DNA of 64,000 nucleotides, taken from NCBI RefSeq assembly GCF_054482525.1, contig NZ_CM137006.1. The stretch is one strand, 5' to 3'. Within the stretch, counting starts at the first letter, position 1. Every line of letters begins with the position of its first letter. A model generated the notes under the pieces. The model ran no database searches and was not told the DNA's origin. It saw only the letters and a list, made by a program, of their open reading frames with translations. Shown in pieces: positions 1,464 through 7,253 of this stretch. Made by a program: the position numbers and the translations under genes.

Positions 1464-1561
1464 GCCGGATGCGGCGTGAACGCCTTATCCGGCCTACAAA
1501 AATCTTGCCAATTCAATATATTGCAGGACCACGTAGGCCTGATAAGCGTAGCGCATCAGGC
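1464..1561. repeat. REP pair with central IHF-like site (RIP/BIME-type element)
   Basis: gccggatgcggcgtgaacgccttatccggcctac ... aatcaatatattg ... gtaggcctgataagcgtagcgcatcaggc; a near-identical copy lies at 63293-63390. Confidence 0.8.
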
Positions 1562-2219: not shown

Positions 2220-2329
2220 TTGACAACATCTGGTACGATTCGCCCGCAGCCATCACTGACCACGGGCGAAAGTGTAAAGCAGGTGCCTTACCATCCTGAC
2301 CTGACAACCGGATATGCGGGGATTACTCC

Positions 2330-3668
2330 CATAAGCGCTAACTTAAGGGTTGAACCATCTGAAGAATGCGACGCCTCGGTGCCTCGTTAAGACGATGCCT
2401 CGCGTTCTTCAATTGCGTTTTGTAGGCTGTCAGGGATACTGTCCCACGAATGGCCACCTGTAAGCTCCAGATGACCATTTTTGTTATTCTCCACAACGAG
2501 TTAGTTCTTCTTTTCGGATCCGGCACTTCTGGGGGGGAAATCCAGCGATGGCTGGATTATGTCGTCAATTAAAAATGCGGCGAGTAGATTAGCAAATATC
2601 CACGCTTTCGCGAGTTCAGGTTCCTTTGCACGCAAAGCATCCAGGTGCAGCAAACTTTTGAGCCGCTTAAAAGCCAGTTCAATTTGCCATCGCAGACGGT
2701 AACAATCAGCCACTTGCTCTGCTGAATATTCATCTTCCGGTAATGATGTTAGCAATAGCACATGGCCCGCTGCTTCCAGCGTTTCCGCCTGAACTACTCG
2801 TCCTTTTCGACGATTCTCGCTGAGCAGTCGGGTTTTACTGATTAATGCTTTTTCGGGAGGAAGTGATACGGCAATGAGACGTGCCGGAAAGGGAGCTCCG
2901 GCTTTTTTATTACCTGAATTGCCTATCATTACAGTGGTTTCACCGTTCTTACCGCAATCCAGCCCGCGCAGAAAACCCATCATGTCAAAGCGCATTCCTT
3001 CTGCAGTTAACCAGCGCAATCCTCGCCAGTGAACCCGGACGATATAATCAGCTTCTCCAAAAGCAAGTGAGCGGATACATTCGGGACGCGAACCGAATCC
3101 CCGGTCAGCAATGCGTATCTCGTCTGCCGTTTGCGCAAATCGGTCCAGCCGTTCAGCGTCTCTGCTGTCGGTTAGCTCAAAATCAGTGAACTGACAGGTA
3201 TGAGGATCATATCCCATATGTAGTCGCCATTCAGCGCTGCCGCCCCCGGGCGCACTGATTGCTGTTCCATCGACAAGACGCAATCTCTTTCCGCTTGTAC
3301 AACCCGTAACTGCGGCGCGTACAGCAAGTGTTTGTGCGGCAAGTATGCCAAACCAGTCGGCGGCATTCCGCAGCCGCTTCAGGAGAGCCACGTCAGATAA
3401 TGTTGCAACGTCATGGAGCTGAGCCCATGCAGTGACTTCACGTAATGACATCCCCCCGGGGCCGTAAGCCAGCCCCAGACGTAGCAGAGTTGCAGCATCA
3501 CGAATTTCGCGGCGGCGGGTTAGAGCCCCGGCATTACGTGCCGAAGTATCCAGTTCTTCGGGCTTACCAATATGGGCCAGAATTGCTGACCAGTTATCGT
3601 GAGAGTAATTCATCGGCACGTTAAATCATATCAGGCGTAATACCACAACCCTTAAGTTAGCGCTTATG
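2330..3668 (-). mobile_element. IS186 (IS4 family), copy 1, 1339 bp
   Basis: Terminal inverted repeats cataagcgctaacttaagggttg (2330-2352) and its reverse complement (3646-3668); flanked by direct repeat ggattactcc (10-bp target duplication) within a GGGG-N6-CCCC hotspot. Confidence 0.92.
2501..3619 (-). CDS. insL: IS186 transposase InsL
   Basis: 372-aa ORF MPMNYSHDNWSAILAHIGKPEEL... (canonical start probably at MNYSHD, 3613); identical protein to the copy-2 ORF. Confidence 0.92.
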   Translation of the reverse strand: MPMNYSHDNWSAILAHIGKPEELDTSARNAGALTRRREIRDAATLLRLGLAYGPGGMSLREVTAWAQLHDVATLSDVALLKRLRNAADWFGILAAQTLAVRAAVTGCTSGKRLRLVDGTAISAPGGGSAEWRLHMGYDPHTCQFTDFELTDSRDAERLDRFAQTADEIRIADRGFGSRPECIRSLAFGEADYIVRVHWRGLRWLTAEGMRFDMMGFLRGLDCGKNGETTVMIGNSGNKKAGAPFPARLIAVSLPPEKALISKTRLLSENRRKGRVVQAETLEAAGHVLLLTSLPEDEYSAEQVADCYRLRWQIELAFKRLKSLLHLDALRAKEPELAKAWIFANLLAAFLIDDIIQPSLDFPPRSAGSEKKN

Positions 3669-3689
3669 GGATTACTCCCCGCACAACGG

Positions 3690-3842
3690 CTACTTCTTCG
3701 GTTCGTAAGCGAGAACAGCCTTAAACTCAATATTACGTTCCTTCACCGTAAACTCACACAGCGAGTCGCGGACCAGAAGCGTAAATCCCAGCACCGTTAA
3801 ACACAGCACTATGACTGCCACAAGGGCATATTTCGTCAGCAT
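3690..3842 (-). CDS. Hok-family type I toxin (hokE-like paralog, locus 1), 50 aa
   Basis: [50 protein letters not shown]; single TM helix plus the conserved R-D-S-L-C-E motif of Hok/Gef peptides; stop 21 bp from the IS186 end. Confidence 0.85.
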
Positions 3843-3987
3843 GTTTATATTGCCTCCATGCGAAGAAGGGACTACCATCCGAGTTGTTGAGGTTCGGAGT
3901 GGCAGCCCCAGGATTGATAGAAATATCTCCTGGGGCTTCATCTTTCCAGACCTCAGAGTAAACCTGAAACCGGAAAGCTTCAGGCAC
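3754..3987 (-). CDS. mok-like overlapping reading frame (locus 1); canonical mok ATG is shifted into the hok frame here
   Basis: 77-aa track ORF in the mok frame from a GTG at 3987; the ATG that starts Mok in locus 2 (atgaagccccag) is in frame with hok in locus 1 because of a 1-nt indel, giving the 83-aa track ORF 3690..3941. Confidence 0.4.
3885..3945 (+). ncRNA. Putative Sok-type antisense RNA (locus 1)
   Basis: Plus-strand promoter-like TTGCCT (3850-3855), 17-bp spacer, TACCAT (3873-3878), antisense to the hok/mok leader; placement by analogy to K-12 sokE/hokE spacing. Ends are approximate. Confidence 0.35.
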
Positions 3988-4181
3988 CCGCTGTTATCTT
4001 ACCCTTCCTTAGCAAAATAACTGTTTATTTATACAGCTAGTCCTGTTTCGGACTTCTGTTGGCAACACTCGTTATTGCTCGTAAAACGACATCGCCCGCA
4101 GCCATTGCTGACCGCGGGCGAAAGTGTAAAGCAGGTGCCTTACCACCCTGACCTGACAACCGGATATGCGGGGATTACTCC

Positions 4182-5520
4182 CATAAGCGCTAACTTAAGG
4201 GTTGTGGTATTACGCCTGATATGATTTAACGTGCCGATGAATTACTCTCACGATAACTGGTCAGCAATTCTGGCCCATATTGGTAAGCCCGAAGAACTGG
4301 ATACTTCGGCACGTAATGCCGGGGCTCTAACCCGCCGCCGCGAAATTCGTGATGCTGCAACTCTGCTACGTCTGGGGCTGGCTTACGGCCCCGGGGGGAT
4401 GTCATTACGTGAAGTCACTGCATGGGCTCAGCTCCATGACGTTGCAACATTATCTGACGTGGCTCTCCTGAAGCGGCTGCGGAATGCCGCCGACTGGTTT
4501 GGCATACTTGCCGCACAAACACTTGCTGTACGCGCCGCAGTTACGGGTTGTACAAGCGGAAAGAGATTGCGTCTTGTCGATGGAACAGCAATCAGTGCGC
4601 CCGGGGGCGGCAGCGCTGAATGGCGACTACATATGGGATATGATCCTCATACCTGTCAGTTCACTGATTTTGAGCTAACCGACAGCAGAGACGCTGAACG
4701 GCTGGACCGATTTGCGCAAACGGCAGACGAGATACGCATTGCTGACCGGGGATTCGGTTCGCGTCCCGAATGTATCCGCTCACTTGCTTTTGGAGAAGCT
4801 GATTATATCGTCCGGGTTCACTGGCGAGGATTGCGCTGGTTAACTGCAGAAGGAATGCGCTTTGACATGATGGGTTTTCTGCGCGGGCTGGATTGCGGTA
4901 AGAACGGTGAAACCACTGTAATGATAGGCAATTCAGGTAATAAAAAAGCCGGAGCTCCCTTTCCGGCACGTCTCATTGCCGTATCACTTCCTCCCGAAAA
5001 AGCATTAATCAGTAAAACCCGACTGCTCAGCGAGAATCGTCGAAAAGGACGAGTAGTTCAGGCGGAAACGCTGGAAGCAGCGGGCCATGTGCTATTGCTA
5101 ACATCATTACCGGAAGATGAATATTCAGCAGAGCAAGTGGCTGATTGTTACCGTCTGCGATGGCAAATTGAACTGGCTTTTAAGCGGCTCAAAAGTTTGC
5201 TGCACCTGGATGCTTTGCGTGCAAAGGAACCTGAACTCGCGAAAGCGTGGATATTTGCTAATCTACTCGCCGCATTTTTAATTGACGACATAATCCAGCC
5301 ATCGCTGGATTTCCCCCCCAGAAGTGCCGGATCCGAAAAGAAGAACTAACTCGTTGTGGAGAATAACAAAAATGGTCATCTGGAGCTTACAGGTGGCCAT
5401 TCGTGGGACAGTATCCCTGACAGCCTACAAAACGCAATTGAAGAACGCGAGGCATCGTCTTAACGAGGCACCGAGGCGTCGCATTCTTCAGATGGTTCAA
5501 CCCTTAAGTTAGCGCTTATG
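4182..5520 (+). mobile_element. IS186 (IS4 family), copy 2, 1339 bp, inverted relative to copy 1
   Basis: Same 23-bp terminal inverted repeats (4182-4204 and 5498-5520); same ggattactcc flanking duplication in a second copy of the hok 3-prime region; internal ORFs are identical to copy 1. Confidence 0.92.
4231..5349 (+). CDS. insL: IS186 transposase InsL
   Basis: 372-aa ORF identical to the 2501..3619 protein. Confidence 0.92.
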   Translation: MPMNYSHDNWSAILAHIGKPEELDTSARNAGALTRRREIRDAATLLRLGLAYGPGGMSLREVTAWAQLHDVATLSDVALLKRLRNAADWFGILAAQTLAVRAAVTGCTSGKRLRLVDGTAISAPGGGSAEWRLHMGYDPHTCQFTDFELTDSRDAERLDRFAQTADEIRIADRGFGSRPECIRSLAFGEADYIVRVHWRGLRWLTAEGMRFDMMGFLRGLDCGKNGETTVMIGNSGNKKAGAPFPARLIAVSLPPEKALISKTRLLSENRRKGRVVQAETLEAAGHVLLLTSLPEDEYSAEQVADCYRLRWQIELAFKRLKSLLHLDALRAKEPELAKAWIFANLLAAFLIDDIIQPSLDFPPRSAGSEKKN

Positions 5521-5541
5521 GGATTACTCCCCGCACAACGG

Positions 5542-5694
5542 CTACTTCTTCGGTTCGTAAGCGAGAACAGCCTTAAACTCAATATTACGTTCCTTCACCG
5601 TAAACTCACACAGCGAGTCTCCGACCAGAAGCGTAAATCCCAGCACCGTCAAACACAGCACTATGACTGCCGCAAGGGCATATTTCGTCAGCAT
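5542..5694 (-). CDS. hokE: Hok-family type I toxin HokE-like (locus 2, adjacent to ybdK), 50 aa
   Basis: [50 protein letters not shown]; position next to ybdK matches K-12 hokE; has G where locus 1 and other Hok peptides have R. Confidence 0.8.
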
Positions 5695-5794
5695 GTTTAT
5701 ATTGCCTCCATGCGAAGAAGGGACTACCATCCAAATTGTTTGGGTTTGGAGTGGCAGCCCCAGGGTTGATAGAAATATCGTCCTGGGGCTTCAT
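5606..5794 (-). CDS. Mok (modulation of killing) overlapping reading frame, locus 2
   Basis: 62-aa [65 protein letters not shown] starting upstream of hok and ending inside it in a different frame, the canonical hok/mok arrangement. Confidence 0.55.
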
Positions 5795-5797
5795 CTT
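5737..5797 (+). ncRNA. sokE: Putative Sok-type antisense RNA (sokE-like, locus 2)
   Basis: Plus-strand TTGCCT (5702-5707), 17 bp, TACCAT (5725-5730); predicted transcript is antisense to the mok start region. Ends are approximate. Confidence 0.4.
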
Positions 5798-6125
5798 TCC
5801 AGACCTCAGAGTAAACCTGAAACCGGAAAGCTTCAGGCACCCGCCGTTATCTTACCCTTCCTTAGCAAAATGGCTGTTTATTTATACAGTAAGTCCTGTT
5901 TCGGACTTCTCAATCCTCATTTGATCAACTGAAGCTGAACCCGTTTTTTTCTGCATGCCTCAATCGTCAAAATTCTTCGCCACCAGTCCGCACTGCCATA
6001 ACTTGTCATATTGCAAAATGTAGCCAATTTGCTTCAGTCACCATCATCAAAAAAAAACATTCCAGAACTTCCGCATCTCGCCCAGTCGCTCCCACTTCTA
6101 TACTGAATAGAAAACGCCAACATAA

Positions 6126-7253
<1,128 letters not shown>

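Follow-up and report, generated by a model that had tools for sequence, protein, structure and literature searches.

The analysis concerns the interval between entD and ybdK in a 64,000-nucleotide stretch of DNA (contig NZ_CM137006.1 of NCBI RefSeq assembly GCF_054482525.1; the whole stretch is referred to as the window), where two copies of the insertion sequence (IS) IS186 lie in the type I toxin-antitoxin locus hokE/sokE. Very probably, a tandemly duplicated hokE was hit twice by IS186, with the result that both hok genes were severed, the 513-bp segment between the IS copies (M) became invertible and the complete unit of 3191 bp became composite-transposon-like. According to the proposed mechanism, an old tandem duplication of hokE/sokE between entD and ybdK would have supplied two units, each carrying the canonical IS186 target hairpin; two recent and independent insertions of IS186, one into each unit and one in each orientation, would each have made a 10-bp duplication; and each hok body would have been severed from its fold-back (fbi) element and terminator, which is the lesion of hokE/IS186 in K-12. 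The identical inverted IS copies would then be substrates for homologous recombination, by which the 513-bp segment would flip, and the transposase would use the two outward-facing IS186 ends jointly, making the 3191 bp a composite transposon with the hok-1/sok-1 module and the hok-2 3' end as cargo. Because the IS186 target motif is part of the 3' hairpins of hok loci, such a unit could land in paralogous hok loci.

In the window, the unit is still in the place of its assembly and in its original state, with direct duplications and M un-inverted. From homology to nearly identical units elsewhere, we infer that it would itself be capable of flipping and moving.

Structure of the locus

The order of the locus is fepA, entD, A1, IS186(-), B1, J, A2, IS186(+), B2, ybdK, with the following features (A, severed 3' end of a hok unit; B, hok body; J, junction between units).

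2240-2329, (-): A1, severed hok-1 3' end; terminator hairpin 2240-2269, fbi element GCAGGTGCCT 2279-2288
2320-2329: target-site duplication GGATTACTCC, left of IS186 copy 1; partner copy 3669-3678
2330-3668, (-): IS186 copy 1, 1339 bp; transposase gene 2501-3613(-); right-hand inverted repeat (IRR) end outward, toward entD
3669-4181: M, middle segment, 513 bp; hok-1 body, junction J and hok-2 3' fragment
3669-4057: B1, hok-1 body
3690-3842, (-): hok-1 toxin open reading frame (ORF), 50 amino acids (aa) and stop; stop codon 21 bp from the IS186 end
3886-3945, (+): sok-1 antisense RNA gene, 56/60 match to annotated K-12 sokE
3982-3991, (-): 5' (tac) element at the start of hok-1 mRNA, from motif position and minimum free energy (MFE) pairing; its partner, the fbi element, is now beyond IS186 copy 1
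4058-4091: J, junction between the tandem hokE units, from alignment of both units
4092-4181, (-): A2, severed hok-2 3' end; terminator hairpin 4092-4121, fbi element 4131-4140, target-site duplication 4172-4181
4182-5520, (+): IS186 copy 2, 1339 bp; transposase gene 4237-5349(+); IRR end outward, toward ybdK
5521-5910, (-): B2, hok-2 body; target-site duplication 5521-5530, hok-2 ORF 5542-5694, sok/leader 5686-5842, tac 5836-5844
150-1424: fepA
ending at 2219: entD
6135-7253: ybdK

By direct comparison, 2330-3668 and 4182-5520 (1339 bp each) are 100% identical as exact reverse complements, and each matches IS186B of K-12 MG1655 at 1339/1339 positions; a reading made earlier from the letters of the window (the sequence-only reading) had placed an identical inverted pair at these coordinates, and its inventory of 3669-4181, namely hok-1, the sok promoter and the 3' flank of locus 2, was equally correct. 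The inverted arms reported by the repeat finder are longer, 1369 nt (2315-3683 and 4167-5535), and overrun the IS ends by about 15 bp because the target, TGCGGGG-ATTACT-CCCCGCA, is nearly palindromic. Each copy contains a single 370-aa DDE transposase ORF (Pfam PF01609 DDE_Tnp_1, E=1.6e-26). The 23-bp terminal inverted repeat CATAAGCGCTAACTTAAGGGTTG has four occurrences in the window, which are all four IS ends (0 expected by chance), and it is perfect at both outer ends of the pair, as in a composite transposon.

Both copies are flanked by the direct 10-bp duplication GGATTACTCC, with GGGG-ATTACT-CCCC as target. The target motif of IS186, GGGG(N6/N7)CCCC, is present approximately 54 times per genome and can be entered in either orientation; known hot spots are the lon promoter, fimA, and menC (Lee et al. 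2016, PMC5009759). A motif scan detected no intact GGGG(N6)CCCC remaining across the 64-kb window, and the two such motifs in this stretch of a PCN033-like ancestor correspond to the two sites now occupied by IS186. The loop of the target hairpin exists in two alleles, ATTACT and ATTGCT, and a genome may have a different one in each of its tandem units (MDR_56, ZH177, TUM1857); two loop alleles in one genome make the swapped-duplication footprint of an inversion readable.

A1 and A2, and likewise B1 and B2, are direct repeats of about 96% identity, and by its sequence the entD-ybdK locus is an old tandem hokE duplication; its units measure about 503 bp, and the interruption falls at an identical nucleotide in the two. 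Both Hok ORFs match Pfam PF01848 HOK_GEF above the cut-off (hok-1, E=3.3e-10), and the sok/hok leader of Rfam RF01794 is found at 84 bits (3834-3989) and, for hok-2, at 82 bits (gathering score, 59). The IS186 site of each unit is a GCGGGG-ATTACT-CCCCGC hairpin located 21 bp past the hok stop codon. In the MFE fold of the reconstructed IS-free hok-1 transcript (407 nt), nt 1-10 GCGGGUGCCU pair with nt 355-364 AGGCACCUGC, followed by the terminator hairpin, and the target hairpin is positioned between the stop codon and the 3' fbi element, so that, in each unit, IS186 stands between the hok body and the fbi element and terminator that belong to it. This pairing of tac and fbi is present only in the IS-free reconstruction; an intact hok transcription unit was found at neither locus of the window. 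Pedersen and Gerdes are said to have described, in 1999, chromosomal hok loci with IS insertions, and the same situation for hokE.

The two units differ in the mok region, where hok-1 is one nt shorter than hok-2 (indel near 3928-3933; window 3690-3941(-)); this puts an upstream mok-like start into the hok reading frame, and the resulting 83-aa ORF has the Hok sequence at its end. A separate, overlapping mok-like frame of 62 aa is retained in hok-2, and PCN033 carries the same hok-1 allele. J (4058-4091) has a weak similarity to 2200-2239, the final codons of entD with the spacer behind them; on this ground, the tandem duplication may have begun inside the entD 3' end. On the other side of entD, 1499-1540(+) matches the small RNA family ES036 (CssrF) of Rfam with 42 bits (gathering score, 37.6); the match is situated in the fepA-entD spacer, in a sequence resembling repetitive extragenic palindromic (REP) elements.

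Origin of the two insertions

An IS-free reconstruction was made from the window by removal of both IS186 copies and one GGATTACTCC each. Strain PCN033 matches this reconstruction in one piece at 1303/1303 positions, with both sites empty, and agrees with the window at every position of 1-2330 and of M (100% identity). Because neither site is occupied in this close relative, each IS186 copy is a simple insertion in its own right, with its own 10-bp duplication. In an evenly spaced sample of the match ranking, IS-free hokE tandems made up about one-third of the genomes, a single IS-free hokE about one-sixth, and K-12-like loci about one-quarter.

Other genomes display the further combinations of orientation (given below as entD side/ybdK side). 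In a census of 5426 complete genomes, the entD-side junction was occupied by IS186(-) in 1666 and by IS186(+) in 235; at the ybdK-side junction, IS186(+) was found in 216 and IS186(-) in 1283. All four pairs were verified in sequence: (-/+) in the window; (-/-) in VTB96933v; (+/-) in GPEC403-625, GPEC856, and O104:H4; (+/+) in MDR_56. A one-IS intermediate (+/0), with a single site occupied, was found in UTME-9. The left flank and M of VTB96933v (-/-) and GPEC403-625 (+/-) are identical to those of the window, and such identity, combined with differing orientation pairs, means that a single haplotype background received four or more separate insertions. K-12 has a single hokE unit with IS186(-) at the same point; its A equals A1 (90/90 identity of A1 to the K-12 stretch adjoining IS186B) and its B is nearer to B2. 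Judged from these sequences, the K-12 state is the expected product either of a single insertion or of a deletion between direct repeats.

Two other origins of the pair were considered. A ready-made IS186-M-IS186 composite might have inserted into a single hokE, so that the tandem is merely apparent. Insertion of the unit into a single target (A, target site, B) would yield exactly A-IS-M-IS-B with identical outer duplications, and transposition of the unit does occur (see below); however, PCN033 contains two IS-free hokE units with a 100% match to the flanks and M, IS-free tandems are common, and insertion of one unit leaves the (-/-) and (+/-) pairs with identical left flank and M unexplained, which makes this origin very unlikely. 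Still less credible, to the point of being negligible, is that an IS186-bearing hokE was duplicated in tandem and one IS was then inverted in place. The regular period of 1852 bp and the identical position of insertion in both units would agree with it, but the hot-spot motif fully accounts for that position, the hok parts have diverged by 4% whereas the IS copies are 100% identical, and empty (PCN033) and half-occupied (UTME-9) tandems exist; we know of no mechanism that inverts an IS in place while leaving direct duplications on both sides. Two independent hot-spot insertions, one per unit of a tandem hokE duplication, are thus the preferred origin; this, and the severing of both hok genes from their own 3' regulatory elements, extends the sequence-only reading.

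Several loci in this comparison need a remark. O104:H4 initially appeared in two different forms, which was rejected: both fetched loci are the same (+/-) arrangement with M direct, and the difference was an artefact of joining non-colinear pieces. TUM1886 was rejected as a site-2-only intermediate, as IS150 is present in its hokE region instead (3492-4861 of the fetched locus). In GPEC856, ISEc12 of the IS21 family (istA/istB) is nested in the second IS186 of the (+/-) pair (approximately 4090-6660 of the fetched locus). Upstream of the hokE pair of TUM1857 (1-1800 of the fetched locus), short-chain dehydrogenase/reductase (SDR) oxidoreductases and an ATP-binding cassette (ABC) permease are found in place of entD and fepA.

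Inversion of M and movement of the unit in other strains

Inversion of the segment between the IS copies, as proposed in the sequence-only reading, was borne out in other strains only. A synthetic isomer, that is, the window with 3669-4181 reverse-complemented, was searched against genomes and gave one-piece matches over 100% of its length in SW070910, in c1-17 (two assemblies), and in O111:H8 SF26 102-1; 2017-02-2CC matched in one piece over 95% of the length. A Galapagos wastewater study provided the sister isolates SW070910 and SW071620, whose 7-kb loci differ in a single respect: the 512-bp middle segment of one is the exact reverse complement of that of the other. A footprint of a different kind was found in ZH177 and TUM1857, both (+/-), in which the two sites have different target alleles: the first IS is flanked by GGATTGCTCC and GGAGTAATCC, the second by GGAGCAATCC and GGATTACTCC. 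Such swapped, reverse-complemented inner halves are the footprint that would be expected of recombination between the IS copies. Among the matches listed, about 10 of 50–60 double-IS genomes are flipped and about 80% keep the direct orientation; the 52 and 61 genomes found at a cover of at least 80% mix (-/+) and (+/-) and are not clean counts of either.

In GPEC403-625, the outer right duplication of the second IS186 (4992-5001 of the fetched locus) is GGAGTAATCC, with its core reverse-complemented, and its left partner is GGATTACTCC; in the sister strain GPEC856, both duplication copies are direct. A conversion tract between inverted IS copies that entered the palindromic flank would produce the state of GPEC403-625.

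Movement of the unit is seen in strains 20.1 (Belgium, cattle) and 118C_1_fosA3 (Japan, dog). Both have the window-type arrangement at entD-ybdK and, in addition, a second IS186(-)-M-IS186(+) of 3191 bp between cas3 and cysH, inside a resident Hok/Gef locus. The outer flanks of this second unit form a direct, new 10-bp duplication, GGTTTTACCC (target GCGGGG-TTTTAC-CCCCGC); its inner flanks, GGAGCAATCC, are the reverse complement of the hokE duplication of these strains, GGATTGCTCC; and its M is identical to the strain's own entD-ybdK copy at 513/513 positions. Removal of the unit and one duplication gives the empty site, to which many genomes correspond at 1000/1000 positions, E2865 and O26 and O103 strains among them. 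These sequence features of the cas3-cysH copy are those left by a transposition in which the outer ends carry the entire unit. A route by recombination alone was rejected, on logic and not by experiment, because recombination would not leave the donor copy in place, as it is in both strains, and because a single IS cannot acquire the unit by a simple double crossover, strand-annealing repair or conversion templated on inverted IS copies. The two strains are non-clonal, with 57 differences in 11.4 kb around the cas3-cysH site; between them, M varies at two positions, and the pair within each strain shares one variant.

The sequence-only reading had suggested that the toxin module might be mobilised by the outer IS ends and that the unit be sought outside the entD-ybdK interval. 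It was found there, at cas3-cysH in 20.1 and 118C_1_fosA3, with a new duplication and a verified empty site; the suggestion held for this chromosomal site. The best plasmid match, peccDNA113 (NZ_CP110860.1), was rejected as a transposed unit, being a 113-kb circle of chromosomal DNA that ends at IS186. This non-mobilizable circular record, listed as a plasmid, begins at IS186 and contains hokE, ybdK, and nfsB through cusA; it has the appearance of a circle cut out of the chromosome, with IS186 as its boundary. In 118C_1_fosA3, a 1-nt insertion is present in the right-hand IS186 of the transposed unit (5922-7035 of the fetched locus), for which the annotation gives a frameshifted transposase; the IS186 copies at entD-ybdK of this strain are annotated as intact.

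A number of points weigh against an invertible and mobile unit. The window itself is known in one orientation only, un-inverted and with all four duplications direct. How well the orientation of a 0.5-kb segment is known when 1.3-kb inverted repeats enclose it depends entirely on the long reads behind the assembly, and some of the flipped states, which were judged from assemblies and not from raw reads, could be choices of the assembler. The cas3-cysH unit is present in two of the 5426 complete genomes, and its two copies could stem from separate events or from a single one with later gene conversion. The IS186-M-IS186 unit was not found in the plasmid search, nor in the phage search, which gave just a 302-bp IS186 fragment. 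As for function, normal folding and processing of hok mRNA are presumably disabled by IS186, as read from sequence and literature.

On such grounds, the locus might be taken as a static scar: two hot-spot insertions inverted by chance, with neither flipping nor movement here, the states in the databases being assembly artefacts or one-off accidents. The un-inverted window with its direct duplications, the preponderance of the direct orientation among the double-IS genomes listed, and the scarcity of the transposed unit, which the searches placed on no plasmid or phage, would all fit. Against it stand the approximately 10 flipped assemblies, which come from different laboratories and from both (-/+) and (+/-) backgrounds; strain c1-17, flipped in two separate submissions; and the cas3-cysH unit, with its clean new 10-bp duplication and verified empty site in two non-clonal strains, for which a misassembly would have to use M twice. 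We therefore consider a static scar unlikely and retain the invertible, composite-transposon-like unit as the explanation.

A bolder reading, to which we give a small chance, is that IS186-hokE-IS186 is an active, hok-homing transposon, which would land by preference in other hok loci, their conserved 3' hairpin being the IS186 target motif, and would build mosaic or tandem hok loci there, and that in the (-/+) arrangement the hok-1 promoter feeds a transposase gene whichever way M is flipped. If this were true, the hok-1 promoter would read into the transposase gene from the left-hand inverted repeat (IRL) side, and toxin-antitoxin transcription would be coupled to the supply of transposase.

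Significance and comparison with known systems

IS186 is commonly regarded as an element that simply disrupts genes, with the lon promoter, fimA, and menC as examples. The present locus would be a natural example of a highly site-specific IS that, from a hot spot present in duplicate, makes an invertible segment as well as a composite transposon, and it indicates that a type I toxin-antitoxin module of the chromosome can be copied from one hok locus into another. Co-mobilisation by IS186 of the DNA that it flanks would be relevant to the multiplication of chromosomal toxin-antitoxin loci, and the landing site between cas3 and cysH to rearrangements beside the CRISPR-Cas I-E locus. With IS186 at the hokE locus of about one-third of complete E. 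coli genomes, in varying configurations, the locus is a useful high-resolution marker and also a spot where assemblies can disagree. The result is a clear one for genome dynamics and the spread of type I toxin-antitoxin systems; concepts are unchanged by it.

IS186 beside hokE and hokC in K-12 is already known; new here, from sequence comparison, would be the IS186 composite unit assembled at a duplicated hot spot. Literature searches yielded no published description of an IS186 composite unit or of hok cargo moving. Hok loci have been noted as insertion hot spots for mobile elements (bioRxiv 10.1101/527788), and IS186 insertions near the cysH-cas3 hok/sok system have been described (PMC3903273).

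The closest counterpart is hokE-IS186B of K-12, which has the same IS, the same insertion point, the same GGATTACTCC duplication, and the orientation of copy 1; unlike the window, it has one unit and one IS186, without an inverted pair, an invertible segment or a composite unit. The gef/hokC locus of K-12 is similar in that IS186 lies downstream of the hok coding region and separates the fbi element, which it is thought to disrupt (PMC3562002). The lon promoter, fimA, and menC share with the hokE site the same motif, entry in both orientations and repeated independent insertions (PMC5009759); in contrast to these, the hokE hot spot is duplicated 503 bp apart, so that repeated insertions create IS pairs able to recombine or co-transpose.

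With Tn5 (IS50) and Tn10 (IS10), the IS186 unit shares an inverted pair of IS4-family DDE elements, the joint use of the outer ends, and a target duplication around the whole unit. It differs from them in its cargo, which bears no selectable marker and is a 513-bp piece of a type I toxin-antitoxin locus of the chromosome; in its assembly in place by two hot-spot insertions; and in its very strict target, GGGG-N6-CCCC, on account of which the unit lands in a paralogous hok locus. M resembles the fim switch and the Hin and Gin systems as a short, promoter-bearing segment found in both orientations in natural isolates. Unlike these, it has no invertase gene or short recombination sites, and no regulatory output is evident; its repeats are 1.3-kb IS elements, and the flipping of M is therefore expected to depend on general homologous recombination.

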